A stretch of DNA of 64,000 bases from Candidatus Kaiserbacteria bacterium. GTDB taxonomy: Bacteria; Patescibacteriota; Minisyncoccia; Phycocordibacterales; Phycocordibacteraceae. Shown in pieces: positions 6,431 to 63,476 of this stretch (positions within the stretch are counted from its first letter, which is position 1; every line of letters starts with the position of its first letter). The notes under the pieces are model-generated. The model was not told where the DNA came from, ran no database searches, and worked only from the letters and a program-made list of their open reading frames with translations. The translations under genes and the position numbers were made by a program. The stretch is from positions 63,506-127,505 of the forward strand of contig OY969413.1 in NCBI GenBank assembly GCA_963699165.1. The letters run 5' to 3'.

Positions 6431-6436
6431 CGCAAG

Positions 6437-22795: not shown

Positions 22796-22825
22796 TGACG
22801 GAGCCATGTCCGAGTCTTCGAGGAC

Positions 22826-25587: not shown

Positions 25588-25633
25588 ATCTCTGGAGTAT
25601 AGAGCAAATTTCTGGTAAGGAAATTCCCAGATG

Positions 25634-26983: not shown

Positions 26984-27135
26984 ACAGACACAAGGAATGA
27001 CGCTGACCGCTCTAGGAGTCCAGAGCGTCCGATGCCCTGAGTTGATAAGAAACGGCTTTATTTCAGGTCATTTTTGTGCTAAAATCACAAAATCCACTCA
27101 CTCTGTGGTCACTTTAAATTGGAGAAAAATAGCTA

Positions 27136-37274: not shown

Positions 37275-38508
37275 TAATTACGTCCACGAATATCGGCTCT
37301 GCTTCGACCATGTAGCAGATTCGTTTCATCTGATCGGCGGCCATGAGCGTACTACCCGAGCCACCAAAGAGATCCAGCACCGCATCACCCGGCTTCGTAC
37401 AACGCTTGAGTGGCCGTTCGTGCAAGGTCACTGGCTTTTGCGTCGGATGACAATATTCTTGACTGGCGACGCGTTTCGCTAACCAAATATCCGCTTGATC
37501 CATGATGTCGTCGAGCAGTTTATTGCCTGACGGTCCAAGTTCTTTGTTCAGAACTTCTGCGAAGTTCTGCCCGACGGGTGCGATGTACGGCTTATTGCGC
37601 GTCGCATAGACGCAGGGCTCGTAACACTTTCCGAAGGCTACGCCAGGTACAGGGTTGGCGGGTCCCTTAATCCACAAACAAACTCGGCGATTTACGAGAC
37701 CAGCATCGGCAGAAAGTGACTGCACCATACCAATATATTTTTGGTCGCAGAAAAAGAATATGTGACAATCAGGGTCGCATACAACAAGCGCGTTCTCCAT
37801 CGAGCGTTTCAAGAAAGAACGATATTCTTCGTCTGGTTTCGAGTCGTCTACATTTCCGCCATACGAACCTTTGCCGCCAACGCCACGATCGTAATCAAGC
37901 GAGATGTTATAGGGCGGATCACAATAAATCATTCCGATTTTTGCCCCACAGGTAACTTTCTTTACAGTTTCGATATCGAGCGAACTTCCGCAGGCAAGAC
38001 GGTGCGACCCGAGCGCGTATAGATCGCCAGTTTTCGCCTTCGGTTCCTTCACGCGCTTTACCGCCTCGTCAAAATCAAATTCATCATCCGAAGTTTCAAG
38101 CGCGTCCGCAAAGATAATCGACAGATCCGAATCATCGAAGCCCGATGCGAGCATCGTATCGATATCGAAGTATTGGGAAATGAGACCATAATCCCAATCG
38201 CCATGAATACGATTACTTGAAAGCAGGTAACGATCGTACTCCGCCTTTGTGAGCTTTCTCGAAGGAACGCGTACTGGAATTTCTTCATCGATACGACCCA
38301 TGGCGGCTAACGCGGCGATACGCTGATGACCTGCAACTAGAGAGTTATCAAGGTCTATAACAGGAGCTTCAACAATTCCGAATTCTTTCAAGCTCTTTTT
38401 GAGGTCTGTCATCTGTTTCGGACTCATAATCCTTGGATTGTGTGGATTCTGAACGAGGTCGGAAACTTTTCTCGTCTCCGTCGTCCACGTGAGCGGCTGC
38501 TTTTTCAT
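37225..38508 (-). CDS. ParB-like nuclease domain fused to DNA methyltransferase
   Basis: It has an N-terminal ParB/Srx domain (..IVEAPVIDLDNSLVAGHQRIAA..) and a C-terminal MTase (..MIYCDPPYNISLDYD.., ..VLDLFGGSGSTLMAA..). The start is chosen at MKKQPLTW; the longest ORF begins at 38613. Confidence 0.75.
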   Translation of the reverse strand: MKKQPLTWTTETRKVSDLVQNPHNPRIMSPKQMTDLKKSLKEFGIVEAPVIDLDNSLVAGHQRIAALAAMGRIDEEIPVRVPSRKLTKAEYDRYLLSSNRIHGDWDYGLISQYFDIDTMLASGFDDSDLSIIFADALETSDDEFDFDEAVKRVKEPKAKTGDLYALGSHRLACGSSLDIETVKKVTCGAKIGMIYCDPPYNISLDYDRGVGGKGSYGGNVDDSKPDEEYRSFLKRSMENALVVCDPDCHIFFFCDQKYIGMVQSLSADAGLVNRRVCLWIKGPANPVPGVAFGKCYEPCVYATRNKPYIAPVGQNFAEVLNKELGPSGNKLLDDIMDQADIWLAKRVASQEYCHPTQKPVTLHERPLKRCTKPGDAVLDLFGGSGSTLMAADQMKRICYMVEAEPIFVDVIIERYENATGIKARKLN

Positions 38509-38627
38509 ATCGGTATATTTGCTGTTAAAAGGCGCATCGCGCGCCCTACAGCAGATACCCACGACTTTCGGCATTTTTGTGACATATAAAAAGCCGCATG
38601 GAAGCGGCTTCAACGGGGAATCCTATT

Positions 38628-39689
38628 TTAGGACAGTAATGGCTTCAGTTTCGGGAGAGCGCGGCTTTTCGCCTTTCGTTCGGTAGCAGTGAGAATTTCA
38701 CCGCGATAATCTTTTTCTATGGCCAGTCGCTCTTTTGGAGGGAGCTTTGTGATCGCACGAGCGATATCGATTTCTTGGATATTGATGGTATCAGTATGCC
38801 TTGCGAGTACCGCATCTGCTCGGGTTTCATCATTGAGAATTTTATCCAACGATTCTTCCAAAAAATTATCTTTGATTTCGTACTTGCCGCGCCCGAGGTT
38901 GTAATCTTTATGGCGGAGACGAAGCCTCTCCGGAAGTTCCGATAGATACAAAGGTTTTCGACGCGGCTTAGCAAGCAGTTTCTGCGTCTCATCTACTGCA
39001 AACGTGAGATTGCCAAGGGAAGTTGAGGCATAGAGATACTGGTAGGTCGATTTGAAACCGCTCCATGCGCGCGTAAGACGCCGCATTAAATCTGCACGAT
39101 GAGGCCCACACGGATCCTTTTCCTTTACACGAGCGAGGAGAGCTCCAACCTCAACAATTTCTGCCCGCCTTATTTCGAGCTCTTTAATGGTTTTGCACCA
39201 GCCGCGAATCATTTCTTTTGTAACGGATGGATACTTTCCCCGGATTTCATTCCATGCTTCTGGAGTGAATTGGTCTTCCCATGACCAAAGAATCTCCGAT
39301 TGATGATCTGGAGAGAACGGCGGTTCGGATTCTTCAGAGATTTGCAATAATGGATTATGTAAAGTTTTGCTCTCTTCGTCCAAATATCCTTCGTATAAAA
39401 TTTCGGTTAGGGAATGCAGAGATGCTAAAACTTCGGGCGATTCTTCACAATCTTTGGCCGCAAAAAGGAAGTACTGTAGGCAAATCAATTGCAATTGAAG
39501 GTCGTTGAGGAAGAAAAGATCTGGGTGTTGAGCCCGCTTCAGTGCGAATTCTTTCATAACAAGACCCAGATCTGCCCATACATCTTCTGCCGTGCGTGAG
39601 GGCAGACGCAAACGCAGTTGGAAGTTATGAATGGCTTGATCGAACTTCGTTCGTTCGTGATTGATAACGGTGCTGTGCGGAGTGGTCAT
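38628..39689 (-). CDS. hypothetical protein (phage-like cargo)
   Basis: 353-aa ORF with protein-like composition and no recognisable domain. Confidence 0.5.
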   Translation of the reverse strand: MTTPHSTVINHERTKFDQAIHNFQLRLRLPSRTAEDVWADLGLVMKEFALKRAQHPDLFFLNDLQLQLICLQYFLFAAKDCEESPEVLASLHSLTEILYEGYLDEESKTLHNPLLQISEESEPPFSPDHQSEILWSWEDQFTPEAWNEIRGKYPSVTKEMIRGWCKTIKELEIRRAEIVEVGALLARVKEKDPCGPHRADLMRRLTRAWSGFKSTYQYLYASTSLGNLTFAVDETQKLLAKPRRKPLYLSELPERLRLRHKDYNLGRGKYEIKDNFLEESLDKILNDETRADAVLARHTDTINIQEIDIARAITKLPPKERLAIEKDYRGEILTATERKAKSRALPKLKPLLS

Positions 39690-40059
39690 ACTCTAATTTT
39701 ACCCCCAATTCAAGCTTTTTATTACGAGAGTGTCGTGAGACACGGCTTCGTAGATTCAGCTACTTTTTTATAGCGCTTCATTCGTTTCAATTCTTAGTGA
39801 ATACGCCATATTCCGCCAAGAATGCTACATCAGTCGCATTCTTCGATTTTGACCCCCAGACCGAGTGGCTTCGTCATGCTACACTGAAAGGATGTCAAAA
39901 ACCCTTACGGTGCCTCGCCGGGCAAGGTTCTAGACGGACTTGGGGCACCTGAACGCGAGTGAAAGGCATTGGACAGCATGCCGACTGCTCGGCATGTGGC
40001 CGGGCTCGAATGCCGGAGCGATGTTCGGCTGAAAGCCGAACCGCGAGGCGGGGTAGCGA

Positions 40060-40110
40060 ATCTTAGCAGAATGCGAATGCGTGGAGCATTCTGCTTAGCA
40101 ATTCGTGACC
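40060..40110 (+). other. conserved hairpin element, copy 2, abutting attR
   Basis: GAATCTTAGCAGAATGC-GAATGCGTGGA-GCATTCTGCTTAGCAATTCGTGACC forms a 13-bp near-perfect stem and lies immediately 5' of the 19-bp tRNA-Phe repeat. Confidence 0.45.
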
Positions 40111-40129
40111 GAGCCCGGGTCCAAGCACT
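40111..40129 (+). repeat. attR: 19-bp direct repeat of the tRNA-Phe 3' end
   Basis: CGAGCCCGGGTCCAAGCAC is identical to tRNA-Phe positions ~23357-23375. The upstream T-arm sequence is not conserved, so only the tRNA 3' fragment is present. Confidence 0.7.
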
Positions 40130-40184: not shown

Positions 40185-40285
40185 GCATCGCCTCACTGTC
40201 GAGTGCGATGTCTCATCGCACTGTCGAGTGCAATGCTTCATCGCACTGTCGAGTGCGACGCATCGTCGTGCTGTCGAGTACAGAA
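40185..40285 (+). repeat. four tandem ~25-bp repeats (YCATCGCACTGTCGAGTGCRATG-like)
   Basis: The units are cctcactgtcgagtgcgatgtc / tcatcgcactgtcgagtgcaatgct / tcatcgcactgtcgagtgcgacgca / tcgtcgtgctgtcgagtacagaagca. Copies of the GCACYTGAACG motif flank the array at ~40125 and ~40283, with a third copy at ~39938. Confidence 0.6.
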
Positions 40286-40312: not shown

Positions 40313-40816
40313 TTAGCCGGCTTTCACGCGCAATTTGGTCTGCTTTGCTTTATCCAGTTTCGGAAGAACGATAGTCAAAAGGCCGTCTTTTGCGCTTGCC
40401 GTTGCCGCTTCAACATCCACTTCTTCGGGAAGAAGAATTGTGCGCGAGAATGAACCCCAAAAAAGCTCTCGGATAAAATAGTCGGGACCTGCGATTTGGC
40501 TGCGTTCGCTGCGCGAGCCGCTTATTTCAACCATATCGCGCCGTATGGAAATATTTAATTCGTCGGGTCGGACGCCCGCGACAAATGCCCGCACGATAAT
40601 TTCCAGAGGGGTCTGATGCACGTCTACCGGCAATTGGCCTTCGCCCGAAGAAGCGTCGTCTTCAAGCGGAGCGGGTCGAGTTCCGTACTCCTCGCGCCGG
40701 GGCGGTATTTCTTTGCGCACCGGCGCGGAGACCGGTTCGTCATCGAAAGAATCGAACGCATCGTCAGCGCTTGGGGTGCCGGAAAGGCGTTCGAAAAAAG
40801 AGCGTTTATTTGTCAT
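40313..40816 (-). CDS. Hsp20/alpha-crystallin family small heat-shock protein
   Basis: It has a C-terminal alpha-crystallin domain (..GLLTIVLPK..) and an acidic disordered N-terminus. Confidence 0.8.
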   Translation of the reverse strand: MTNKRSFFERLSGTPSADDAFDSFDDEPVSAPVRKEIPPRREEYGTRPAPLEDDASSGEGQLPVDVHQTPLEIIVRAFVAGVRPDELNISIRRDMVEISGSRSERSQIAGPDYFIRELFWGSFSRTILLPEEVDVEAATASAKDGLLTIVLPKLDKAKQTKLRVKAG

Positions 40817-41526
40817 GATGAGCGGGTAGGGTTAGGAAAATTATGATACTGAAAATATTTGAGGACCTCGAATGCGGCGAAGAAGACGACGGCAATCATC
40901 CAAATAAGGAAGAATGCGGTCAGAGTGGTCGAAGTGCCTGCACCCATAATAATAGTGTTGAAGGCGGTATGCAATGCGATTGCGAGGATAAGTCCGACAG
41001 CCGCGGCGAAAATCCGCGCGTCCGCGCGGTACCGCTCCGAAAATGCGAGCGCGAAACCGATTGTCGCCGATGAAAGCACATGACAGAGCGTCGAACCGAG
41101 AAAGCGCAGGTCGCCGGTTACAAATGAAGTCGCGATTTGACCGTTCAGAAGCGGTTCTAGAATAAAGAGCGTGTTTTCGAGCGCGGCAAAACCGAGCGCG
41201 ACCGTGAGCATGTAAATGACATAGTCGGGCGTTTCGTCGACCGCTCTGCGCCAGAAGATGAAAATCGCCGCCATTGCATATTTCACTACTTCTTCGATGG
41301 TTGCCCAGCCGAGCATCACGGAGAAATTGTTTTGCAGATTTGCGCGCACATACTGTTCCATCGGAATCGCAATCGGCACCGCGAGCATGCCGACAATAAA
41401 CGCAAAGGCAATCAGTTTTTTCGGTTCGGGATGGCGCGCGTCCTCTCGAAGCAGAAAATAGAGCCAGATGAACGACGGAAGAATCCCGCCGAGAAATGCG
41501 TAACCGAGGGCAGTAAGAATCACCAC
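40813..41526 (-). CDS. PrsW-family intramembrane protease
   Basis: 237 aa with 7 TM helices and the conserved EExxK (IEEVVKYAM), FxxxE (FAALENTLF) and HxxxN (HTAFN) motifs. Confidence 0.6.
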   Translation of the reverse strand: MVILTALGYAFLGGILPSFIWLYFLLREDARHPEPKKLIAFAFIVGMLAVPIAIPMEQYVRANLQNNFSVMLGWATIEEVVKYAMAAIFIFWRRAVDETPDYVIYMLTVALGFAALENTLFILEPLLNGQIATSFVTGDLRFLGSTLCHVLSSATIGFALAFSERYRADARIFAAAVGLILAIALHTAFNTIIMGAGTSTTLTAFFLIWMIAVVFFAAFEVLKYFQYHNFPNPTRSS

Positions 41527-49547: not shown

Positions 49548-50312
49548 TCAATACCTAAGCGAAGTGTTCAGAGGATCATCAAATCTGACTCTCACCATTA
49601 TTCTTTCCCCTTCGTACGGCATTCTACCATGCAGAGTCAGCTTATTATCAACGAGCAAGATGTCACCTCGTTCCCATGTATGACTGGCAATCAGGCATTT
49701 CTTCAAAGAATGCTCAACTGCTCCATATAGGTCGTCTTCTGTGTAACCCCTCGGGAGTTGCAGTATGCGGTTTCCGAATGTTAGTCCCCGATACCGCAGA
49801 TATTCTCGCTCGCATAGAGGGTGAATTGCCTTTTCCCCAACATACGATGCACTGGAATACTCGATGTCGACATCTACAATCTCAGGGTAATCGCTTCGAA
49901 TCAGGCAGGCAGCTTTCCGGGCGTCATACACATTTGTCATGCCGCCAGTTTCAGAAGGTTTGACGCATCCCAAAGCAAAATATGGGGTTATGCCCGCCCG
50001 CGCATATATGCCTTCCGTATGTATCGCCAAACTATCCTTATCCCTCCGGGCCTGCAGGGTTATATATGACGCCGAACTAGCGATTCTTTGACCAAAAAGG
50101 ACAGCGATTAGAATTATGTACGTCGCCAGGTTGGCATCAGTTTCCGGGAGAGAACCTGGTTTAATCAATACACATCCGAATTCTCTTAATTGTTTTAGAA
50201 CGGGAACGGTCGCCTCATTGATTGACGTCTCGCTGTTTATTGAAGCAATTCCAATCATACACGAACACCTTTCCTGACAAGAAACTTTTAGTTCCCGCAT
50301 GTACAATATCAA
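49548..50312 (-). CDS. TauD/TfdA-like Fe(II)/2-oxoglutarate dioxygenase family protein
   Basis: It has a HTEG (HxD/E) motif and a C-terminal LVDNKLTLHGR matching the TfdA-family WDNRxxxHxR signature. Confidence 0.5.
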   Translation of the reverse strand: MILYMRELKVSCQERCSCMIGIASINSETSINEATVPVLKQLREFGCVLIKPGSLPETDANLATYIILIAVLFGQRIASSASYITLQARRDKDSLAIHTEGIYARAGITPYFALGCVKPSETGGMTNVYDARKAACLIRSDYPEIVDVDIEYSSASYVGEKAIHPLCEREYLRYRGLTFGNRILQLPRGYTEDDLYGAVEHSLKKCLIASHTWERGDILLVDNKLTLHGRMPYEGERIMVRVRFDDPLNTSLRY

Positions 50313-50340
50313 ATAACTACGGACCGCAAGTATTTGTCTT

Positions 50341-51042
50341 GGCCACGCATAATTTTCTGCTGAAAATTTGCGCGGCTCCTAAAGGACTGCGGTTTGTATG
50401 CCAATCGCTTCGCTCTTGGACAAACCGGAAGCCCTCCTCGGGCCTCATTCAGCAGAATGACCTACTGGGGTCGCCCTGCGGCTTTCGAGTCCCTTACTGC
50501 GCTACAAAACAATAATCGCCACACGCTTCGCGTATGACTCGTTTGTTTTGTGGCGGGACTCGGTCACGAATAATTCGTTCGCCGCCGCTCACGAATTTTC
50601 GCGACCCCGTCTCGGCCACGCACTCGCTTCGCTCGCGCGGCTTCGCGGCCTCCGACTTTCGAGTCCCTTACCGCGCTACAAAATGATAGTCGCCGGTCAC
50701 TTTCGTGACCGGCTCCTTCATTTTGTGCGCGGGCTCGGCCACGCATAATTTTCTGCTGAAAATTTGCGCGGCCCCGCCTCCGGCCGTCGCCGTCCGGCTT
50801 TCGAGTCCCTTACCGCGCTACAAAACAATAATCGCCACACGCTTCGCGTATGGCTCGTTTGTTTTGTGGCGGGACTCGGTCACGAATAATTCGTTCGCCG
50901 CCACTCACGAATTTTCGCGACCCCGTCTCGGCCACGCGCTCGCTTCGCTCGCGCGGCTTCGCGGCCTCCGACTCTCGAGTCCCTTACTGCGCTACAAAAC
51001 AATAATCGCCACACGCTTCGCGTATGGCTCGTTTGTTTTGTG
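50341..51042 (+). repeat. complex tandem repeat array containing four copies of a tRNA-Val 3'-end fragment (TTCGAGTCCCTTACCGCGC)
   Basis: There are two full 174-bp units (~50483-50656 and ~50800-50973) plus a 67-bp partial unit, interleaved with a variant unit (~50657-50799). Each unit starts with CTTTCGAGTCCCTTACYGCGCTACAAAA. The motif GGCCACGCATAATTTTCTGCTGAAAATTTGCGCGGC recurs at ~50341 and ~50737. The ORFs here are repeat artefacts. Confidence 0.7.
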
Positions 51043-51106
51043 CCCCCTAACGGTACCGCAAGACACCAAGTGAGGCAATTGCAAGGCCTTTGGGCGACCT
51101 ATACAA

Positions 51107-51125
51107 CGTACGGCTTGAGGCCTAA
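51107..51125 (+). repeat. 19/20-bp direct repeat (left copy) TTGAGG-CCTAACGGTCACG; right copy at ~58281-58300 next to tRNA-Val
   Basis: The two copies are 19/20 identical and 7.2 kb apart. They bracket the DGR, the IS481-like element, two IS-A copies, the IS-B fragments and a serine-recombinase gene fragment. Confidence 0.5.
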
Positions 51126-51537
51126 CGGTCACGATCAGAACTGGACACTTTAGACACTACATAGCGTGTTCCACCAGTGTCCTGTTTTCGGGATTCCAGC
51201 AAGCCTTTCAAGGGTATTTGAGAGATTCGGAGCCTTAACCCACCATCCCGGAGGGAGTCCAACGGTACCGCACCAAAAAACGAACAAACCGAACACGAAA
51301 GCGCATATTTTGAGTGTTCGTATTCTGTTCGGTTCTGGAGGCTCATAGGCACCCAATTCGTGAGACAGGTGTCTCATTTGCCCTCCACAGCATGGCTTAT
51401 TTGCTCAATATGAGACAAATGAGACACAAAAGAGGGGTATTTGGGGTGTCTCATTTGTCGAAGTTAAAATGCCAATAAATGCCAATTTTTGAGAATGTGT
51501 AAGAAATAAAAACAAGGATACATATGTTGCATATGTG

Positions 51538-52563
51538 TCAAAGATTTCGGCTTCGGTTTGTATCTGCGCCGAGGGTGATTGCCACCTTGGTTTTAGGGAT
51601 AAGCGCCGCGAGCGTGTGCGCGTTGCCGTGCGAGAGCAGTCCTCGGTACGATGCGAGTGTAGCCTCCTCCGGTTCTCCTTGGAGCGCCTTGAGCATCCTT
51701 CGCTTGGTGCTGGTGCGCAGCACGTCGTGATCGGGGAAATGCACCCAGCCGAGAAAGTCGATGCCTGACGCGAGGGTGGAGATGGAGACCTTGTTCGGGT
51801 GCAGCTCGAGCTTGAGCGTATCGCGCAGGTATTCGCGTATGTGCGGCAGTAGCGCTTCAAGCTCGATTCGATCCATTGAGAGCACTACGAAGTCGTCGGC
51901 ATAACGGAGGTAGTAGCGGGCTTTGAGGCGATGCTTCACCCATTGGTCGAACTCGTTCATGTACACGTTCACGAGGAGCTGGCTGGTGAGGTTGCCGAGC
52001 GGGAGACCCTTCCCCGGCGTGCCGGAGCGGAAGCTCTCGATTACGTTTTGGAGCAGGGCGAGCGTGCGCTCGTCGTTGACGTGATTGCGCAAAATGCCGA
52101 GGAGCACTTCGTGATCGATGGAGGCGAAGAACTTGCGCACGTCGCACTTGAGTACCCACAGCGTCTTGGTGTGATTCTTGCTCGCTTTGTACGCATAGCG
52201 CTTGAAGGCGGCTATGGCGCGATGGGTACCCTTGTCGAGGCGGCAGGAGTACGAGTCGGGAATGAAGGTGCGATTGAAATAGGGATAGAGAACTCGATAG
52301 ATGGCGTGATGCGTGAGGCGGTCGCGCACTCGTGCCTTGTGAATGTCGCGGGGCTTGGGGTCACTAATCCTGAAATGCGAATACGGGCCGTGGCGATAGG
52401 TGCCGGACGCCAGCTCGTCATGGAGTTGCGAGATGTTTTCAACAAGGTTGTACTCGAAAGCCTGCACATCTTTCTTCTGCCGCTTGCCGCGTATAAATTC
52501 TTTCCATGCGTCGAGCAGATTATTGGGAGAAATGATACTTTCGTATGTATGAGTGATTTCCAT
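51538..52563 (-). CDS. diversity-generating retroelement (DGR) reverse transcriptase
   Basis: The RT domain carries the YADDFVV (YxDD) box and the DGR-specific LPLGNLTSQLLVNVYMNEFD motif. The N-terminus resembles DGR RTs (..RGKRQKKDVQAFEYNLVENISQLHDELASGTYRHGPYSHFRISDPKPRDI..). The start is taken at MEITHTYE; the longest ORF to 52779 adds a GC-rich low-complexity leader. Confidence 0.85.
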   Translation of the reverse strand: MEITHTYESIISPNNLLDAWKEFIRGKRQKKDVQAFEYNLVENISQLHDELASGTYRHGPYSHFRISDPKPRDIHKARVRDRLTHHAIYRVLYPYFNRTFIPDSYSCRLDKGTHRAIAAFKRYAYKASKNHTKTLWVLKCDVRKFFASIDHEVLLGILRNHVNDERTLALLQNVIESFRSGTPGKGLPLGNLTSQLLVNVYMNEFDQWVKHRLKARYYLRYADDFVVLSMDRIELEALLPHIREYLRDTLKLELHPNKVSISTLASGIDFLGWVHFPDHDVLRTSTKRRMLKALQGEPEEATLASYRGLLSHGNAHTLAALIPKTKVAITLGADTNRSRNL

Positions 52564-52604
52564 TCTTTTAGTTCCCCCCCCCCGCAATCGCCCCTGACAA
52601 GCTC

Positions 52605-52964
52605 GTGCCGGTGGTGTTGAAACTAAAGGAAGCATACCTCGCGTGGCAGCAGGCGCTTCCGCATGTCGCCAAGGCGCGGCGGCAGACCGTGGGGGCGCGG
52701 ATCGATGGGGCGCTCCTCGACACGCTTGAGCACGCCTTTCGTGCCGGGTATGCCTCGGGCACTCGCAAGCTGGAGGCACTTGAGTATTCGATCGAGAAAC
52801 TCGATGCCGCGAGGTTCTTCCTGCTTGTGGGCTGGGAAAGCGCCGCGCTCACGAACGCGCAGTACATGCGCATAGCAGGACTCTTAGTGGATGCGAGTAA
52901 GATGCTCGTCGGGTGGAAGGCGTATATGGAAAAGAAAACTCCCGCGAATAGCGAGAGAAAGTAA
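52605..52964 (+). CDS. putative Avd-like four-helix-bundle accessory protein, encoded on the strand opposite to RT/TR
   Basis: 119 aa with a GTG start. Its helical heptad pattern (LKEAYLAWQQA.., ..LEALEYSIEKLDAARFFLLVGWESAALTNAQYMRIAGLLVDASKMLVGWKAYM) resembles DGR Avd / 23S-IVS four-helix-bundle proteins. The same-strand ORF over this region (52568..53062) is Ser-rich and not protein-like. Confidence 0.4.
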   Translation: MPVVLKLKEAYLAWQQALPHVAKARRQTVGARIDGALLDTLEHAFRAGYASGTRKLEALEYSIEKLDAARFFLLVGWESAALTNAQYMRIAGLLVDASKMLVGWKAYMEKKTPANSERK

Positions 52965-52967
52965 GAC

Positions 52968-53079
52968 GAGTTTCGGACGAGGAGTCGATTGTCAGCGTTC
53001 CAGCGATTGTCGTTGCCGAGCCTGTTGACGTTCGCGTTCCACCTCGAGTCGTCGCGATTCACGTTGGCGACCGAGACGC
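52968..53079 (-). repeat. DGR template repeat (TR), 112 bp
   Basis: It is 102/112 identical to the VR. All 10 differences sit at adenines of the TR sense (minus) strand: 9 A->G and 1 A->C. TR codons are rich in AAC/AAT (Asn). Confidence 0.85.
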
Positions 53080-53319
53080 TATGTGCCGCTCACCATCCAT
53101 ACCACCGCCCATCGAATGCTCTCCGGGCTGTATCTGATTTGAGGCCGTGAGCCCGCAAGCGGGCGACACCAACTTGAATTTCTTTTTTCGGGCGTTTATA
53201 CCCGGAACCTCGCCACCCGAAGCCCGAGGGCCGCAAATGCCAGCGTGTTCGTATAAAATTATACCCCTCTTCGCGCAAGCGCGAAGAGGGGTAATTCGAG
53301 GAAGCCCGAATACAGGGAC

Positions 53320-54015
53320 TTAGGATCCCAGTTTCGAAGCGTCCAAGTTGCGGACGAGGAGCCGATCGTCAGCGTCCCAGCGATCGTCGTTGCCGAGCCT
53401 GCTGACGTCCGCGTTCCACCTCGAGTCGCCGCGATTCACGCCGGCGACCGAGACGCTGCCGTTCTTGTCTTCGACGAAGAACCAGTTGGCCCAGCCGTCG
53501 GTGCGCATGCCGGTATTGCCCGGCTTGCTCTCCGTGGCCTCGACCATGGCCTCGGCTTGCGCCAACGTCATGGTGTGGCCGCGCTCTATGAGGAGCGCTG
53601 CCAGCTTCTCGATCGAAGTGTCCGCGGGAACGCCGAGGACAAACGCTGCCCATTGCGCGAACGTCGCGTCCCGCGAGGGAGTGAGCGTCGTGATGGTGCA
53701 GGCGGCCGCTTCAGGCTGTTCCTTGGGGAGCCAGCCGTCGAAGTCGCTGTCGCGGTACGCATAGCGCGAGGCGGTGAAGCACTTCTTCGTCGGCTTGCCA
53801 ACGACCACAGCGAGCTCTGTCGTCGCGGAAGCGGAAAGCAATGCGGCCGGTGCAGTTGCGCTCTCCGGTGGCACGAGGCCAGCAAGGAACTTCTTGGTCG
53901 CGGCGGGATTGTTCATCCAGCCGTCCATGATCTCGTCGGTCAGCGTGTCGGGAAAATTCTGGATCATGAACCCCGCGAATGCGGCGGTTTTCTTGTCGTA
54001 GGCCTTCGCACTCAT
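53320..54015 (-). CDS. DGR target (variable) protein with a C-terminal ligand-binding VR, probably a C-type-lectin/FGE-like fold
   Basis: 231 aa. The C-terminal ~40 residues are encoded by the VR, with the upstream ..GWANWFFVED.. motif common in DGR targets. Confidence 0.75.
   Translation of the reverse strand: MSAKAYDKKTAAFAGFMIQNFPDTLTDEIMDGWMNNPAATKKFLAGLVPPESATAPAALLSASATTELAVVVGKPTKKCFTASRYAYRDSDFDGWLPKEQPEAAACTITTLTPSRDATFAQWAAFVLGVPADTSIEKLAALLIERGHTMTLAQAEAMVEATESKPGNTGMRTDGWANWFFVEDKNGSVSVAGVNRGDSRWNADVSRLGNDDRWDADDRLLVRNLDASKLGS
53346..53457 (-). repeat. DGR variable repeat (VR) at the 3' end of the target gene
   Basis: It encodes ..NRGDSRWNADVSRLGNDDRWDADDRLLVRN.., where TR would encode NRDDSRWNANVNRLGNDNRWNADNRLLVRN. 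It ends ~24 nt before the target stop codon. Confidence 0.85.
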
Positions 54016-54133
54016 GTGCGCTTCTCCTTATGACAGTGGTTACTCAGGCCGGATGGCGCGAGTTGAAGCCCTATGTCCGTAACGGAATCAAGGTGCTTCT
54101 GAGATACATTATACACATAGAATAGAGGTTGCG

Positions 54134-55033
54134 TCAAGGCGTTGTACGCGTCCAGTACTTTTGGCAGTCCCCGACGGTTAATGTCGACACAATATACCGC
54201 AAGGGGGACACCATGCCGAGCGACTGGTGCGGGCGTTTGGTGTTGTACCAGATCAGCCAGTCGACAAGCTTCAGATTGAAGGAATGAATATCGTCCCGCA
54301 GCAGGCCCCGATTCAGCATGATGAAGTCCTCGGAGACGGTGCGATTGAATCGTTCGACGTGGGCATTCATCTTGGGAGTGCGGGGGCGGGTGTGAAAGTG
54401 CGTGAGCCCGAGTTCGGCACAGGCATCCTCGAAGTGTTTGGCGAACTCGCTCCCGTTGTCGGTCTGCAACTCGTCGATATCGAAGGGGCAAACCTCGATG
54501 ACTCGGCGAAGGAAGTCGTCCGCGCTTCTCGACGAGTGGTTCGTATACGCGCCCGCAAAGGCGAACTTCCGCTCCACGTCCACTGCCGTGAGGACGTACC
54601 GCTTCACGCCGTCGATGAAGCGGACGACGGTATCGAGCTCCATGCCGCGCTTGCCGGTGCGGCGAAGCTTGGTACGGCGTTTCTGCGGTGTTTCCGTGTG
54701 ATTGCCCGTACGTGCGTGGAACGAGAGCCGGCTCTGCTGCGGGAGCAGACCGCGGTTCTTCAAATCCAGAATGACCCGCCCAACGTATGACTCCGACACG
54801 GAGTACCCTTCTTCGCGCAGGAGAACGGCAAGCTTTGCTTTCCCAAGCCGGGGATGCGCCTGTCGTTCGCGGATGATGAAATCCTCGACCTCGGGCAGAA
54901 CAGTCCTCCTTCGACGCGCCTTCGGCGCAGTGCTCTTCGGGTCAAGTGCATCAATGCGGCCCTCGTGGGCTTTGAGTTCCTCCTTCCAGCGATACAAGGT
55001 GCGCTCCGAGGTGCCAAAGGCGTCGTATGCGGC
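54134..55033 (-). pseudogene. IS481-family transposase, 5'-truncated by IS-A copy 3
   Basis: rve integrase core (..LQTDNGSEFAKHF.., ..HVERFNRTV..). The N-terminal HTH begins abruptly at the IS-A boundary (~55034). Confidence 0.7.
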
Positions 55034-55095
55034 TGACCTGACCCCCAAATTTCAGACCATGTTCTAGACGGGATTAACCGCTAGAATGACGTCAT

Positions 55096-55353
55096 ATGAA
55101 GCAATACCGCATCGCTCCTGAGGTGAAGGAACAAATCATTAATCGAATCAAGAACGATGGTGTCACTGTCGCCCAAGCGGCCAAAGAGCATGGTATCCAC
55201 GAGACCACCATCTATGGCTGGCTTGGTGCGAAAGTGCAAGACGGTACCGCATCTGTTCTTGAGATTGCGAGACTTCGAAAAGAGAATGACGAACTCCTTC
55301 GTCTTGTTGGACTCATGACGCTCAAGCTGTCTGAAACCCAAAAAAAGAAGTGA
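55096..55353 (+). CDS. IS3-family transposase OrfA (IS-A copy 3)
   Basis: Identical to the other IS-A orfA copies. Confidence 0.85.
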   Translation: MKQYRIAPEVKEQIINRIKNDGVTVAQAAKEHGIHETTIYGWLGAKVQDGTASVLEIARLRKENDELLRLVGLMTLKLSETQKKK

Positions 55354-56162
55354 GCAAAGAATCTCCGATTGGTACGCGCACAACAGCGCGTACTCTTGGT
55401 ATAGCTCGTTCCACCTTCTGGTATCAAAAGAAGAAGCCTGACAAAGACTGGGCACTCAAATGCCGTATTGAAGAAGTCCTTCGAGAGTTTCCTTCGTATG
55501 GATACCGGAGAGTTGCCCTGTATCTCAAGGAGAACAAAAAGAAGGTTCAAAGAGTCATGCGACTCTTTGGTATCAAAGCATATCGAAGAAGAGGAAGACG
55601 GTGGAGGAAATCAAGGAAACAAGCCGTGGAGTATCCAAATCTCCTGATGCGGATTGTACCCGCCTATCCGCATCAAGCATGGGTCGCTGATTTCACTCAT
55701 GTGTATTTCAAAGGGAAAGACATTCGTGTGGCAACCACCATGGACGTATACACTCGAAGTGTCGTTGGGCTCGCCATTGGTACGCGAGGTGGAACCGTAC
55801 TTGTGACGCAGGCATTGTGCGCGGCACTTCTCAACCATCCTCGTCCCACCATCTTTCACAGCGACAACGGAGTGGAATACAATGCCGCATCCTTCCGAGA
55901 GATGCTCATCAATTTCGGCATCAGCATCTCTCGCTCAAAAAAGGGCTGTCCGTGGGAGAACGGGTACCAAGAATCGTTCTATGGAAAATTCAAAACTGAT
56001 CTGGGCGATCCCAATCGCTTCGATACGCTTGGTGAACTTGTTGCTGAAATCTATCAGACAATTCACCGGTACAACACCGTGCGTATACACTCAACACTCA
56101 AGATGGCACCGAGAGAGTTTGCGAAATCGCACATCACCCGTACACTATCTTCACTCGTCTAG
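55350..56162 (+). CDS. IS3-family transposase OrfB (IS-A copy 3)
   Basis: Identical to the other IS-A orfB copies. Confidence 0.85.
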   Translation: MSKESPIGTRTTARTLGIARSTFWYQKKKPDKDWALKCRIEEVLREFPSYGYRRVALYLKENKKKVQRVMRLFGIKAYRRRGRRWRKSRKQAVEYPNLLMRIVPAYPHQAWVADFTHVYFKGKDIRVATTMDVYTRSVVGLAIGTRGGTVLVTQALCAALLNHPRPTIFHSDNGVEYNAASFREMLINFGISISRSKKGCPWENGYQESFYGKFKTDLGDPNRFDTLGELVAEIYQTIHRYNTVRIHSTLKMAPREFAKSHITRTLSSLV

Positions 56163-56192
56163 GAAGTGGTCTGAAGAATAGGGGTCGGTACA

Positions 56193-56756
56193 AGTTTAAA
56201 CGTCAATTCTCCGATGAGTGCTTTAAGGAGACCGTTCTCCTTCTTCACTCTGTTGTGCTCAATGATACTCACTCCTTTTGCAGAGGTGCCAAGCCAAGCA
56301 TAGATAGTGACGGTACTGACTCCGTGTTCTTTCGCTGCCTCAGCGACACTGATGCCATCGTTTTTGATACGGTTGATAATCTGCTCCTTAATCTCAGGAG
56401 CAATACGGTATGCTTTCTTTGCCATAGGTACATTCTAAATTAGCTGCTGGTATTTAGAATGAGTGTCCGACGTTTGGGGTACCTTGCATACTGACTCCGT
56501 GTTCTTTCGCTGCCTCAGCGACACTGATGCCATCGTTTTTGATACGGTTGATAATCTGCTCCTTAATCTCAGGAGCAATACGGTATGCTTTCTTTGCCAT
56601 AGGTACATTCTAAATTAGCTGCTGGTATTTAGAATGAGTGTCCGACGTTTGGGGTACCTTGCAACGGTTGATAATCTGCTCCTTAATCTCAGGAGCAATA
56701 CGGTATGCTTTCTTTGCCATAGGTACATTCTAAATTAGCTGCTGGTATTTAGAATG
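56193..56756 (-). mobile_element. three nested/tandem partial copies of the IS-B orfA-proximal end (~294, ~172 and ~93+30 bp)
   Basis: All three fragments share the IS-B end ...GTCCGACGTTTGGGGTACCTTGCA. The first (56193..~56488) includes a truncated orfA (56159..56425, different C-terminus). The second is ~56489..56663. The third (~56664..56756) is split by IS-A copy 4 and continues at ~57916..57945. Confidence 0.7.
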
Positions 56757-56786
56757 TGTACCGACCCCTATTCTTCAGACCACTTC

Positions 56787-57599
56787 CTAGACGAGTGAAG
56801 ATAGTGTACGGGTGATGTGCGATTTCGCAAACTCTCTCGGTGCCATCTTGAGTGTTGAGTGTATACGCACGGTGTTGTACCGGTGAATTGTCTGATAGAT
56901 TTCAGCAACAAGTTCACCAAGCGTATCGAAGCGATTGGGATCGCCCAGATCAGTTTTGAATTTTCCATAGAACGATTCTTGGTACCCGTTCTCCCACGGA
57001 CAGCCCTTTTTTGAGCGAGAGATGCTGATGCCGAAATTGATGAGCATCTCTCGGAAGGATGCGGCATTGTATTCCACTCCGTTGTCGCTGTGAAAGATGG
57101 TGGGACGAGGATGGTTGAGAAGTGCCGCGCACAATGCCTGCGTCACAAGTACGGTTCCACCTCGCGTACCAATGGCGAGCCCAACGACACTTCGAGTGTA
57201 TACGTCCATGGTGGTTGCCACACGAATGTCTTTCCCTTTGAAATACACATGAGTGAAATCAGCGACCCATGCTTGATGCGGATAGGCGGGTACAATCCGC
57301 ATCAGGAGATTTGGATACTCCACGGCTTGTTTCCTTGATTTCCTCCACCGTCTTCCTCTTCTTCGATATGCTTTGATACCAAAGAGTCGCATGACTCTTT
57401 GAACCTTCTTTTTGTTCTCCTTGAGATACAGGGCAACTCTCCGGTATCCATACGAAGGAAACTCTCGAAGGACTTCTTCAATACGGCATTTGAGTGCCCA
57501 GTCTTTGTCAGGCTTCTTCTTTTGATACCAGAAGGTGGAACGAGCTATACCAAGAGTACGCGCTGTTGTGCGCGTACCAATCGGAGATTCTTTGCTCAC
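56787..57599 (-). CDS. IS3-family transposase OrfB (IS-A copy 4)
   Basis: Identical to the other copies. Confidence 0.85.
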   Translation of the reverse strand: MSKESPIGTRTTARTLGIARSTFWYQKKKPDKDWALKCRIEEVLREFPSYGYRRVALYLKENKKKVQRVMRLFGIKAYRRRGRRWRKSRKQAVEYPNLLMRIVPAYPHQAWVADFTHVYFKGKDIRVATTMDVYTRSVVGLAIGTRGGTVLVTQALCAALLNHPRPTIFHSDNGVEYNAASFREMLINFGISISRSKKGCPWENGYQESFYGKFKTDLGDPNRFDTLGELVAEIYQTIHRYNTVRIHSTLKMAPREFAKSHITRTLSSLV

Positions 57600-57853
57600 T
57601 TCTTTTTTTGGGTTTCAGACAGCTTGAGCGTCATGAGTCCAACAAGACGAAGGAGTTCGTCATTCTCTTTTCGAAGTCTCGCAATCTCAAGAACAGATGC
57701 GGTACCGTCTTGCACTTTCGCACCAAGCCAGCCATAGATGGTGGTCTCGTGGATACCATGCTCTTTGGCCGCTTGGGCGACAGTGACACCATCGTTCTTG
57801 ATTCGATTAATGATTTGTTCCTTCACCTCAGGAGCGATGCGGTATTGCTTCAT
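57596..57853 (-). CDS. IS3-family transposase OrfA (IS-A copy 4)
   Basis: Identical to the other copies. Confidence 0.85.
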   Translation of the reverse strand: MKQYRIAPEVKEQIINRIKNDGVTVAQAAKEHGIHETTIYGWLGAKVQDGTASVLEIARLRKENDELLRLVGLMTLKLSETQKKK

Positions 57854-57945
57854 ATGACGTCATTCTAGCGGTTAATCCCGTCTAGAACATGGTCTGAAAT
57901 TTGGGGGTCAGGTCAATGAGTGTCCGACGTTTGGGGTACCTTGCA

Positions 57946-58196
57946 TACTGTTAGAGAGCATCAGCATCGACGAGATTGGGGCTCGGCATCTCATCGAAAG
58001 AGAGGTATCCCGGTACAACAAGCTCCGGGCGGCCATGCAGGACAAAAGTGAGAAGGTGAAGGCAGACGAAATGGATATACGGAAGTACGCAAAGTATCTT
58101 CTTGAGAACGGGACACCATCGGAACAGCGGGAACTACTCGGGCATCTCAAGGGAAGGATCATCCTGAAAGACCGGAAGGTGGCTATCGAAAATTAG
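57946..58196 (+). pseudogene. 3'-terminal fragment (~80 codons) of a large serine recombinase gene, truncated by the IS-B/IS-A cluster
   Basis: The in-frame translation ..[76 protein letters not shown]-stop is homologous to the C-terminus of the recombinase at 25634..26983 (..[56 protein letters not shown]..). Confidence 0.65.
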
Positions 58197-58210
58197 AGCG
58201 CCCAAAGCAA

Positions 58211-58245
58211 AACCTCGCGATGAAAATCGCGAGGTTTTGCGTCAA
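58211..58245. terminator. bidirectional hairpin terminator
   Basis: AAAACCTCGCGATTTTCATCGCGAGGTTTTG. Confidence 0.6.
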
Positions 58246-58321
58246 ACACCCCGAAAGGTACCGAACCACCTATTCTCATTTTGAGGGCCTAACGGTCACG
58301 TTTTTAGGCCGCTGACTGCTG

Positions 58322-58394
58322 TGCGCGGTAAGGGACTCGAACCCCTGACCCTCTCAACGTCAATGAGATGCTCTACCAACTGAGCTAACCGCGC
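58322..58394 (-). tRNA. tRNA-Val (anticodon GAC)
   Basis: The minus strand reads GCGCGGTTAGCTCAGTTGGTAGAGCATCTCATTGACGTTGAGAGGGTCAGGGGTTCGAGTCCCTTACCGCGCA with anticodon loop TTGACGT. No CCA is encoded. Confidence 0.85.
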
Positions 58395-61476: not shown

Positions 61477-61482
61477 AAAATC

Positions 61483-61606
61483 GACCCCACGGGGAATCGG
61501 TCAAGCGCTCGTTCGTCGCCGTCGCTCCTCACTCCGCCTGACCACGCTCGCGCGACCCGACCTGCTGGCCGGGTGCCCGCGCTCGCCTTCGATTCCCCGT
61601 GGGGTC
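61483..61606. repeat. 17-bp inverted pair of the tRNA-Glu 3' end (GACCCCACGGGGAATCG) flanking a 90-bp GC-rich spacer, plus a 20-bp direct repeat GGAATCGGKCAAGCGCTCGT
   Basis: The direct copy lies at ~61483-61499 and the inverted copy at ~61590-61606, both identical to the tRNA-Glu gene 3' end at ~61658-61674. GGAATCGGGCAAGCGCTCGT occurs at ~61454 and GGAATCGGTCAAGCGCTCGT at ~61492. Confidence 0.6.
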
Positions 61607-61656
61607 TACAAAAATATAATCGCCCGATGCTCATCGCATCGTTCTCATTATTTTTG

Positions 61657-61728
61657 TGACCCCACGGGGAATCGAACCCCGATTTACGCCGTGAAAGGGC
61701 GCTGTCCTAACCGTTAGACGATGGGGCC
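61657..61728 (-). tRNA. tRNA-Glu (anticodon TTC)
   Basis: The minus strand reads GGCCCCATCGTCTAACGGTTAGGACAGCGCCCTTTCACGGCGTAAATCGGGGTTCGATTCCCCGTGGGGTCA. No CCA is encoded. Confidence 0.8.
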
Positions 61729-61778: not shown

Positions 61779-63476
61779 TCATTTCCGCCACGAAATGCTA
61801 GGATAGCCAGCACGGGCTACGGCGAAAACTGACCTTTCGCTCGTCCAGACATCGCATGCGATGCAAATAAGGAGAGGTGGCAGAGTGGTCGAATGCACTG
61901 GTTTCGAAAACCAGCAGGGGTGTAAGCTCCTCGTGGGTTCAAATCCCACCCTCTCCGCAATAGGTAGGACAGTACTAGATTTATCAAAATTATTTTGGGC
62001 TTCACGCAGTGAAGCCCATTGGGGTTGAGCCACGCCGCGCGCTTCGCGCGTATGTAAGGAAAGGTTGGAGCCGAAGATTTTTTGGAGGGAGAGTTTTTTG
62101 GAGCGGAGGTCGCTGCTTTTTCGTATTTCGTCCAGCATTGAAGCGTCCTTTATGAAATCACGCAGAGGTTGGAGCCAAAGCGTAGCGTCATGCTCCAGTC
62201 GGACGATCTGTTCCTCGGCCGACTTGCGCTCAGACATGAGCGCACGCCTCCGCTCAAGGTAGGTATCGCGGTCTATGTCCTGCTCGGAATAGAGATCAAC
62301 GAAGCGGCTCATCTTGCCGTCCAGTTGAGCAATCTTCGCTCGGAGTTCTTGCACGGCAGTCATAGCAACGGACTCGGTCTTCTGCTCGTCTTCGTTAGCC
62401 ATGCGGTATAGCTCTTGCGTCCAATCCGTAGGCATAACATAGAGCGAAAGTAGATCGGAGAGTTGAGCACTCAATACCTCCTCGCGGACATAGGACTGCG
62501 AACAGATACCGCGTTTCTTGGTACAACGGTAGTAGACGTAGCGGTGGACGTTGCCGTTCTTCTGGTGCTTGGTTATCACTTCTCCCGTTATCATCCCGCC
62601 GCACTCGCCGCAACGCATAATGCCGCACAGAGGCTGCGGCTCATTCTTGGGCTTGTGTCGCTGTCTGCCGCGTAGCTCCAAAACGTCCTGCACTTTGTCG
62701 AAAGTGGCTTTTGAAACTAGGGGCGTATGCACACCTTTGTACACCTCTCCGGCGTACTCGAAATGACCGTAGTAGAAGACGTTGGTGAGCATCTTCTTTA
62801 TGCTGTCCTTTTTCAAAGGCTTGTCGCCGCTACTACCGGACTTCTTGATCTTCTTACTTCTGATACCACGCTCATACAGAAAAGTGGCAATGTCCTCGAA
62901 GCGTGATTTGTTCTCAGCGTACAGCTCAAAGGCCGTTCGGATGGCCGGAGCCTTGCGACGATCAACTTCGACGCGCTTCGTTCTGGGATTGTTGATATAG
63001 CCCAACGGAGCAAGCCCCGGATACTCGCCGCGTCTCGCTTTCTCCCGTTGTCCCCGTTTCGTATTCGCACTCAAGTCGCGGATGTAGTGGTTCGCCATTC
63101 CAAGCTCGACAGACATCATCAGCACGTTATCGGCGGGAAGAAAACTGCGATCGTGAGTTTGTATGTGTTGAATTACGGACTGCTGCAAAAGCCAACTGAT
63201 CTGGCCGCCGTCCACCGGATTACGGGCAAGGCGATCTATCTTCCAACACACGATGCCCTGCGCTTCGCCCGCGATGATACGTCGGATTATATCGTTAAAG
63301 ACGGGACGACCCGGCTTCTTCGCGGATTGCTTCTCCACGAACTCGGCCGCAATCTCCAACCCCTCGCGCTTAGCGAGGGAGCGCAACTCAGAGAGCTGCG
63401 CGTCTATCGAGAGGACTTGCTTGTCCTCGACATCGGTACTCTTGCGGGCGTAGAGGAAGTAGTGGGGCATAGGCAT
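61779..63476 (-). CDS. large serine recombinase (integrase of a tRNA-Ser-associated element); ORF reads through the opposite strand of tRNA-Ser
   Basis: It begins MPMPHYFLYARKSTDVEDKQVLSIDAQ.. (resolvase domain), followed by a recombinase domain, a zinc ribbon (CGIMRCGECGG..YYRCTKKRGIC) and a coiled-coil. The last ~58 codons (..ERVGFEPTRSLHP..) overlap tRNA-Ser antisense, so the true C-terminus may lie near 61960. Confidence 0.8.
   Translation of the reverse strand: MPMPHYFLYARKSTDVEDKQVLSIDAQLSELRSLAKREGLEIAAEFVEKQSAKKPGRPVFNDIIRRIIAGEAQGIVCWKIDRLARNPVDGGQISWLLQQSVIQHIQTHDRSFLPADNVLMMSVELGMANHYIRDLSANTKRGQREKARRGEYPGLAPLGYINNPRTKRVEVDRRKAPAIRTAFELYAENKSRFEDIATFLYERGIRSKKIKKSGSSGDKPLKKDSIKKMLTNVFYYGHFEYAGEVYKGVHTPLVSKATFDKVQDVLELRGRQRHKPKNEPQPLCGIMRCGECGGMITGEVITKHQKNGNVHRYVYYRCTKKRGICSQSYVREEVLSAQLSDLLSLYVMPTDWTQELYRMANEDEQKTESVAMTAVQELRAKIAQLDGKMSRFVDLYSEQDIDRDTYLERRRALMSERKSAEEQIVRLEHDATLWLQPLRDFIKDASMLDEIRKSSDLRSKKLSLQKIFGSNLSLHTREARGVAQPQWASLREAQNNFDKSSTVLPIAERVGFEPTRSLHPCWFSKPVHSTTLPPLLICIACDVWTSERSVFAVARAGYPSISWRK
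61871..61957 (+). tRNA. tRNA-Ser (anticodon CGA), class II with a long variable arm
   Basis: GGAGAGGTGGCAGAGTGGTCGAATGCACTGGTTTCGAAAACCAGCAGGGGTGTAAGCTCCTCGTGGGTTCAAATCCCACCCTCTCCG. No CCA is encoded. Confidence 0.85.

Follow-up and report, generated by a model that had tools for sequence, protein, structure and literature searches.

How does a diversity-generating retroelement (DGR) come to lie against a tRNA gene in a bacterium of the candidate phyla radiation (CPR)? DGRs are unusually common in CPR bacteria, and those borne by phages and by tyrosine-integrase islands, such as the islands and integrative and conjugative elements of Legionella, are well known; the locus considered here places a DGR next to the remains of a large serine recombinase gene. 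It lies beside tRNA-Val(GAC) in a 64,000-nucleotide stretch of contig OY969413.1 from Candidatus Kaiserbacteria bacterium (henceforth the window; G+C content 51.7%), in a segment that also holds a nest of insertion sequences (IS). As judged from sequence comparison, 51040-58320 is probably the remnant of one, or of two tandem, integrative elements that belonged to the family of the recombinase LSR1, entered at tRNA-Val and carried the DGR as cargo, a reading to which we assign a probability of roughly 0.7.

The repeat pair and the borders of the segment

A preliminary description of this DNA had drawn attention to a 19/20-bp direct repeat of the form TTGAGG(G)CCTAACGGTCACG on either side of the DGR. 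Both copies exist. The right one, the 20-mer TTGAGGGCCTAACGGTCACG, occupies 58281-58300, and its sole partner in the window at an edit distance of 1 is TTGAGGCCTAACGGTCACG, on the same strand and one G shorter, which lies at 51115-51133 and not, as had been given 8 nt too low, at 51107-51125; the gap between the right 20-mer and the 3' end of tRNA-Val likewise measures 20 nt rather than ~22 bp. Read on the tRNA-Val strand, TTGAGGGCCTAACGGTCACG becomes CGTGACCGTTAGGCCCTCAA and begins 21 nt past the tRNA end. Ungapped identity between the two copies extends over 15 nt (blastn-short E = 0.01 with a 200-nt query), and among 486 20-mers tested within 100 nt downstream of six tRNAs a partner at edit distance <=1 was found only for TTGAGGGCCTAACGGTCACG and for an inverted copy at tRNA-Glu. 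Shorter words behave similarly: the window has three copies of the 9-mer ACCGTTAGG against 0.27 expected, always on the - strand (at 51046, covering 51046-51054, and at 51121 and 58288), and the four copies of GTGACCGAG, against 0.56 expected, are confined to places resembling attachment (att) sites, namely both ends of an island at tRNA-Phe and the array to the left of the DGR. The features at the two borders are as follows.

51039-51043, - strand: core GCACA of attR, the distal junction, where the window and contig L089 diverge (L089 alignment)
51044-51133, - strand: P arm, with motif m2, CGGTACCGTTAGG (51046-51058), beside the core and motif m1, the left 20-mer (51115-51133); 96.6% identical to L089
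51134-51537, - strand: spacer between the reverse transcriptase gene and the P arm, with three copies of GTGTCTCATTTG/CAAATGAGACAC; 95.6% identical to L089
57948-58196, + strand: 3' remnant (82 codons) of a large serine recombinase gene, a pseudogene reading toward tRNA-Val (similarity to LSR1)
58197-58319, - strand: P' arm, with a terminator-like palindrome at 58207-58240 and motif m3, the right 20-mer, at 58281-58300 (alignment across the family)
58320-58324, - strand: core GCACA of attL, overlapping the final 3 nt of tRNA-Val (L089 comparison)
58321-58394, - strand: tRNA-Val(GAC), intact, the B side of the attachment site (Rfam 68.8 bits)

The meaning of the repeats emerges from L089 (VFSW01083781.1, 3682 bp), a contig found by a metagenome scan with the DGR reverse transcriptase (RT). 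Its positions 1-1516 align to window 52555-51039 at 94% identity, through the RT gene, the 400-nt spacer, the left 20-mer, a further 51 nt and CGGTACCGTTAGGGGGCAC, and the two sequences then part ways at the pentanucleotide GCACA (51039-51043). Beyond this core L089 runs into AGCAGTCAGC..., whereas the window runs into AAACAAACGAG.... The L089 continuation (AGCAGTCAGCAGCCCCATTTGTGACCGCTGGGCT..., a terminator and then a 73-codon 3' fragment of a recombinase gene) has the same order as the tRNA-Val flank of the window at 58319-57971, where GTGACCG, a terminator and the recombinase 3' fragment follow one another (...CCGCGCAC|AGCAGTCAGCGGCCTAAAAACGTGACCGTTAGGCC..., then the terminator, then the fragment). 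Past the core of its left site, the window has AAAACAAACGAG..., a terminator-like hairpin on the tRNA-Val strand and then the exact complement of the tRNA-Val 3' end. GCACA alone is common to the three sites, which can be written as P-core-P' in L089, P-core-B' on the left of the window segment and B-core-P' on its right.

Read on the - strand, the right site of the segment is tRNA-core-P' and the left site P-core-terminator; the two have the same, direct orientation, and P and P' face inward. Sharing the short core only, they form a hybrid attL/attR pair that rebuilds into an attP and an attB, and L089 contains exactly this rebuilt P-core-P'. This direct orientation with inward arms therefore speaks for the insertion of a circle; an inversion would yield an inverted orientation and a deletion would leave a single site, and both are disfavoured on that account. 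The resemblance of the sequence left of the distal junction to a tRNA terminator, with its hairpin and tRNA-Val 3' complement, supports the view that the terminator of tRNA-Val was displaced. The core covers only the last 3 nt of tRNA-Val and the tRNA gene is therefore intact.

The comparison with an attP-type junction bears out the proposal in the preliminary description that the tRNA-Val segment was inserted site-specifically with the DGR inside. It does not bear out the role given there to the 20-mers, as the duplication made by the insertion and the ends of the element. In L089 a single, undivided attP-like site holds both the left 20-mer and a sequence that corresponds, in diverged form, to the right 20-mer; the repeated motif must therefore be older than the insertion, and the 20-mer was rejected both as a target duplication and as the crossover site. 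The 20-mers are instead a pre-existing motif, (C)GTGACCGTTAGGCC, of the P and P' arms that the insertion did not create; the true junctions are the two copies of the 5-nt core at 51039-51043 and 58320-58324, and the element spans ~51040-58320. The m3 copy also participates in a hairpin, GGCCTAA-N11-TTAGGCC, at 58286-58310.

On this basis the following course of events can be proposed. The recombinase would join a P arm-core-P' arm site to the extreme 3' end of the tRNA gene, with the crossover falling within GCACA; the circular attP would have read ...GTTAGGGGGCAC joined to AGCAGTCAGC, and the empty attB would have been tRNA-Val joined to AAAACAAACGAG. After insertion the recombinase gene would adjoin the tRNA and read toward it, the cargo would lie beyond, with the DGR (target gene, template repeat and RT) at the distal, P-arm end, and the original terminator of tRNA-Val would have been displaced by 7.3 kb. 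Insertions of IS-B and IS-A and at least one IS-A-mediated deletion would then have destroyed the recombinase and left a fixed island. We infer the serine recombinase as catalyst, the exact crossover dinucleotide and the order of the decay events, as well as the part that the three direct arm motifs (m1, m2 and m3) would play in recombination.

The recombinase fragment and its family

The fragment beside tRNA-Val aligns with residues 362-443 of LSR1 at 51% identity (E = 3e-25), LSR1 being the 449-amino-acid recombinase encoded at 25634-26983 in the tRNA-Phe island; this agrees with the homology noted previously. The protein encoded at 61779-63476, for which an alignment had likewise been proposed, shows no detectable similarity to the fragment and is unrelated to it in sequence. 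The suggestion that the architecture of the segment mirrors that of other elements holds for intact members of the LSR1 family, whose spacing between stop codon and tRNA is matched at tRNA-Val (124 nt, against 125 nt in L083 and L084, both at tRNA-Arg).

Intact LSR1 and its relatives in L081-L085 and L159 possess Resolvase, Recombinase and zinc-ribbon domains. The fragment lacks the catalytic domain and the segment is therefore a remnant rather than a working member of the family. It is 50-54% identical to all 120 LSR1-clade proteins, among which no full-length member of its own subfamily was retrieved. Homologues 70-86% identical to LSR1 are encoded in many CPR genomes; in the contexts that were fetched they read toward a tRNA and the cargo consists of restriction-modification or defence genes.

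The sequence just past the tRNA can be aligned across the Phe and Val sites of the window and L081, L083, L085 and L089. In five of the family's elements this sequence includes GTGACCG, at 19-22 nt beyond the end of the tRNA, and the surrounding motif reads ...CAAGTGACCGAGAGGCC in L081 and ...GAGTGACCGAGTCACC at the tRNA-Phe of the window. The shared, alignable flank with GTGACCG therefore identifies the right 20-mer as the motif that the family carries on the element side, in the P' arm. In L081, L083 and L085 the 10-kb flanks yielded no direct repeat of the tRNA end, and the reading frames of the tRNA-Val segment contain no tyrosine integrase domain.

The DGR and its origin

The DGR occupies the distal part of the segment and comprises three components.

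51538-52563, - strand: RT gene; open frame to 52779, start at 52563 according to the gene call in L169 (PF00078, E = 2.6e-24)
52969-53080, - strand: template repeat (TR), 112 nt, 91% identical to the variable repeat (VR; repeat comparison)
53320-54015, - strand: target gene of 231 amino acids with the VR at its 3' end (53346-53457, the last 46 codons; reading frame and TR/VR comparison)

All ten mismatches between TR and VR fall at TR adenines on the coding strand (10/10), and the DGR appears to be functional. The RT has homologues of 331-341 amino acids, thousands of them in CPR genomes, and a TR/VR pair adjoins the RT gene in 7/7 of the related loci examined for repeats. The target protein is 57% identical to that of L087 and gave no Pfam match. 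The VR is identical in L169, which is an independent assembly of the same strain and repeats the arrangement of DGR, attR and TauD gene; L089 ends short of the VR. No candidate Avd gene was called between the target gene and the RT gene in the window or in L087, no dedicated search having been made.

Besides that of L089, the closest RTs are those of L088 (76%), L087 (72%) and L090 (67%). All three have the entire cassette in the interval from RNR to rnpB-TPR-MurJ-LepA, where it is flanked by the RNR gene on one side and by the 3' end of the RNase P RNA gene on the other (L087 8436-10996, L090 7400-10109, L088 1-1149). Window 51634-54100 corresponds to L087 10939-8436 at 69.6% nucleotide identity. 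The window has the same RNR-LepA genes at 11569-20453, where the gap between RNR and RNase P RNA measures 51 nt (13960-14010) and is empty. In a neighbour-joining tree of the RTs (no bootstrap) the window and L089 are sister to L087 and L088, with L090 outside, and L171 (RT 75%) has its cassette in yet another context. One and the same cassette is thus seen in three genomic contexts within one clade, at RNR-rnpB, in the tRNA-Val segment and elsewhere in L171, which implies that it moves within the clade. The simplest reading would be that the element captured a resident chromosomal DGR from the RNR-rnpB site.

The spacer that separates the RT gene from the P arm has no counterpart downstream of the RT in L087, L088 and L090. 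Two copies of the 12-mer GTGTCTCATTTG and one complement of it lie at ~51360-51460 and are kept in L089; these 12-mers could be a candidate protein-binding site.

Insertion sequences and the history of the segment

Between the DGR and the recombinase fragment the segment consists of insertion sequences and a transposase gene that they have cut.

54134-55033 (frame to 55048), - strand: IS481-like (rve) transposase gene, its 5' end removed by IS-A (domain search)
55034-56192, + strand: IS-A (IS3-like, with TG...CA ends), flanked by ...GGC and AGT... and hence by no target-site duplication
56193-56756, strand not assigned: nested IS-B fragments
56757-57915, - strand: IS-A with the 3-bp target duplication CAT, inside an IS-B end
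57916-57945, + strand: IS-B terminus (30 nt) that directly adjoins the recombinase gene and cuts it short

All the contents previously listed between the repeats (DGR, IS481-like transposase, two copies of IS-A, IS-B fragments and recombinase 3' end) are present. The window holds four identical copies of IS-A (1159 bp), together with two full copies and several fragments of IS-B. Three of the four IS-A copies (23854-25012, 33185-34343 and 55034-56192) have mismatched flanks and lack a target-site duplication, which points to several IS-mediated rearrangements, some of them via copies outside the window. The copy at 55034-56192 links the truncated IS481 gene to an internal piece of IS-B, and since it has no duplication the DGR half and the recombinase half of the segment must have been joined by an IS-mediated rearrangement.

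This joint bears on the question of whether the two halves were ever parts of one element. The alternative, possible if somewhat doubtful, is that two elements once stood in tandem: the DGR-bearing one entered first, a second, related one followed at the same tRNA, and an IS-A/IS-B deletion running from the N-terminus of the second recombinase to just upstream of the DGR target gene later fused them, in which case the DGR and the recombinase fragment would at no time have been parts of one element. The flanks of the IS-A copy, a truncated IS481 gene and the interior of an IS-B, do derive from different contexts. Identity to L089 also changes abruptly, from 93.2% (RT), 95.6% (spacer) and 96.6% (P arm) to 61.5% (P' arm) and 74.1% (recombinase fragment, 83% at the amino acid level), with the drop falling exactly at the core; the two element ends must therefore have had different histories, and L089 itself resembles a distal element end joined through a core to the proximal end of a following element. 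A single element would, however, show the same identity pattern if related elements had exchanged modules at the core, and no second P-core or core-P' relic is present within the 7.3 kb. A single element with modules exchanged at the core and two tandem elements fused by deletion both fit, and either would leave the DGR inside the tRNA-Val insertion, against a genuine distal attachment arm. Of the earlier idea that one decayed element held both DGR and recombinase, the position of the DGR within an insertion is retained; the two need not have shared an element, given the identity drop at the core and the IS-A joint.

A more radical alternative dispenses with site-specific insertion and has IS-mediated inversion, deletion or composite transposition place the DGR beside an old recombinase relic, the repeat being dispersed or due to chance. 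The wealth of insertion sequences would suit it (four 100%-identical copies of IS-A, three of them without target duplication, and nests of IS-B), as would the chromosomal position of the DGR orthologues in L087, L088 and L090 and the fact that an exact 15-nt repeat is not rare per se in 64 kb. We nevertheless regard it as improbable: the window and L089 diverge at GCACA beside arm motifs and not at the end of an insertion sequence, the arm motif is specific to family and position, and the two hybrid sites stand in the direct orientation that circle insertion predicts. The region does not have the make-up of a composite transposon either, as insertion sequences occur only to the right of the DGR and the left border is an attachment arm. 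An assembly artefact through mis-joins across IS-A, IS-B or tandem units is less probable still, for although the interior is built of 100%-identical IS copies and nested fragments and L169 differs by one 174-nt array unit, that independent assembly reproduces 54378-45867 in all but the number of units, distal junction included, the key junctions at 51039-51043 and 58320-58324 lie within unique sequence, and the IS nest at 55034-57945 alone depends on one assembly.

Insertion of LSR1-family elements with DGR cargo at tRNA-Val remains the preferred reading, and several observations weigh against it. Besides the unequal identities to L089 on the P side (~95%) and in the P' arm and recombinase fragment (62-74%), the closest relatives of the DGR are chromosomal and not element-borne. 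L089 covers only 3.7 kb, and its junction would fit a free circle as well as a tandem array or a further integrated copy; an MFS-like gene that is absent from the window follows its recombinase fragment on the other side. The recombinase is cut in both the window and L089, at points ~10 codons apart, that of L089 lying further in, and no autonomous copy was seen. The motifs of the P and P' arms are direct repeats, whereas the half-sites of serine integrases are normally inverted. Finally, an empty tRNA-Val site was not found in the collections searched, where the genes closest to those flanking the segment share 53-66% identity with them and lack synteny. A scan of genome contigs for the trehalase returned 80 Saccharimonadales loci at 58-67% identity, none of them syntenic with the tRNA-Val side, the trehalase relatives all stemming from Candidatus Saccharimonadales/Saccharibacteria MAGs; among TauD homologues the same strain (L169) was the only close match, the others being at most 53% identical, and an exact look-up of window proteins (NUDIX, trehalase, P0001) gave no match. 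The attP junction and the 20-mer had no match in a viral contig collection, and in a search of phage DNA a generic RT was the sole match.

The array left of the distal junction and other tRNA ends

Immediately outside the element, the sequence to the left of the distal junction is repetitive.

50340-51038, - strand: flank outside the element, 4.5 tandem units (hairpin and repeat analysis)

In each unit an arm-like motif is accompanied by a pseudo tRNA end, and there follow a terminator-like hairpin and a complement to the 3' end of tRNA-Val; GC-rich spacers separate the units, and the unit closest to the element (50975-51038) forms the B' side of attR. Terminator-like hairpins lie on the - strand at 51028-51008, 50854-50834 and 50538-50518. 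The 3'-terminal 19-mer of tRNA-Val occurs there in four inverted copies (+ strand, 50484-50992), outside the element. An interpretation of these copies as att relics with an IS-A-mediated inversion was rejected because they form the far arm of terminator-like hairpins, because the layout recurs at tRNA-Glu and because L089 defines the junction.

A similar array (61480-61655) lies downstream of tRNA-Glu; its units combine a pseudo tRNA 3' end with a terminator-like hairpin and with the genuine 3' end of tRNA-Glu as a perfect inverted copy. The rebuilt attB, in which tRNA-Val leads directly into its terminator and then into its own 3' end in inverted form, has the same layout as tRNA-Glu at 61588-61728. 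Old attachment scars, tandem duplication and a native terminator design are candidate origins from which the arrays may have arisen. A search of 50250-51600 against Rfam at a relaxed threshold returned chance-level matches only.

An insertion or scar lies at the 3' end of nearly every tRNA in the window. Relative to L090, 1.46 kb with two reading frames (20908-22368) is inserted directly after tRNA-Gly(ccc), and 234 nt (22750-22982) directly after tRNA-Arg(cct). The latter piece includes a relic of a P arm (22847-22895) that is 88% identical to the arm of the tRNA-Phe island at 40062-40110, and a relic of the tRNA-Arg 3' end at ~22938-22962.

Sister islands and further DGR-bearing elements

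The tRNA-Phe island (23376-40128, 16.7 kb) is the sister island in the window: it encodes the intact LSR1 and is bounded by a direct repeat of 19 nt (23357-23375 and 40110-40128). In L090, which is syntenic (RNR 83%, LepA 84%), the island is absent and tRNA-Phe leads straight to the orthologue of 40313-41508; by this comparison the island is a true insertion. Its cargo consists of a type I HsdM-like gene, a fragment of a ScaI endonuclease gene, SIR2-like and HerA-like genes split by two copies of IS-B, copies of IS-A and a double methyltransferase module that is likewise found in L081, L083, L085 and L094. Just outside its right end, 40185-40282 holds four 25-nt tandem repeats (...CATCGCACTGTCGAGTGC...).

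The combination of a DGR with a serine recombinase is not a one-off and recurs in L159, L094 and L103. The metagenome contig L159 (356 kb) carries at 4022-20732 an intact 16.7-kb island at tRNA-His between perfect 39-nt direct repeats, with a 543-amino-acid serine recombinase reading into the tRNA, a DGR with adenine-specific TR/VR differences, a TPR protein, AbiEii and a type III restriction-modification system. In L094 an LSR1-family gene (69%) adjoins VP-TR-RT, after which comes the methyltransferase module that characterises these islands, and in L103 an RT gene is followed by an LSR1-family gene. L133 was considered as a further example of a DGR inside a recombinase element and rejected, its recombinase being a 1.6-kb cassette between 63-nt inverted repeats with the DGR outside.

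Relation to known systems

Large serine recombinases drive elements and prophages such as phiC31, Bxb1, A118 and TP901-1, as well as SCCmec with CcrAB. The LSR1 family resembles them in the Resolvase, Recombinase and zinc-ribbon domains of its intact members, in the very short common core (5 nt here), in the hybrid attL/attR and in the location of the recombinase gene at the end beside the attachment site. It differs in its host, a CPR bacterium, in small size, in cargo of defence genes or a DGR with no phage or conjugation genes, and in arms that hold direct copies of one motif over ~130 nt. Serine integrases have mostly been described as inserting into protein-coding genes, whereas the LSR1 family targets the extreme 3' end of tRNA genes (Val, Phe and Arg, and His in a related clade). 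tRNA is not mentioned in the main text of Durrant et al. 2022 (PMC10083194).

With the DGR-bearing tyrosine-integrase islands at tRNAs, as in Legionella, the segment shares its site at a tRNA 3' end, its DGR cargo and its IS-driven decay. Unlike them it has no tyrosine integrase, its far border bears no duplicate of the tRNA 3' end, and its two junctions agree in 5 nt at the crossover and otherwise in arm motifs older than the insertion. The DGR itself is close to the chromosomal DGRs of CPR bacteria that Paul and co-workers are said to have described in 2017, with which it has in common the compact cassette of target gene, TR and RT, the adenine-specific mutagenesis and an RT 65-76% identical to related Saccharimonadales RTs; it departs from them in being a tRNA-linked insertion beside an attachment arm and not at the RNR-rnpB position of L087, L088 and L090.

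The preliminary description held that a DGR on a serine-recombinase element is not a commonly described arrangement, and no such description was found in the literature searched, nor one of recombinase-tRNA islands in CPR bacteria. The present locus, together with L089, L094 and L159, presents DGR cassettes as cargo of tRNA-linked islands with serine rather than tyrosine recombinases. A far broader proposition, which we put forward as speculative and rather unlikely in its entirety, is that CPR bacteria host a large, undescribed family of serine-recombinase islands at tRNA 3' ends, with sites that mimic tRNA ends and repeated arm motifs, and that these islands capture and move resident DGRs (here from RNR-rnpB), even as non-autonomous mini-elements served in trans by a related recombinase. 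If true, this would give DGRs a concrete path by which to spread horizontally where phages or plasmids are few. The individual element is dead and its own biological weight modest; the attachment sites, defined to the nucleotide for a recombinase family of many CPR genomes, help the annotation of islands and possibly the development of integration tools.

Other recombinase loci and repeats in the window

The second recombinase of the window (61779-63476, 565 amino acids) has a reading frame that crosses tRNA-Ser(cga) (61871-61958) on the opposite strand. L085 shows the same arrangement at tRNA-Ser(tga) (17075-18661), with the recombinase gene between 133-nt inverted repeats, and at L133 11141-12708 one of the 63-nt inverted repeats around the recombinase abuts tRNA-Arg; no flanking inverted repeat was found around the recombinase at 61779-63476. 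The three loci may represent minimal recombinase-only cassettes or invertible segments. Elsewhere in the window, 8914-10218 (- strand) contains a 434-amino-acid frame with three ~292-nt repeats that are 66-88% mutually identical.

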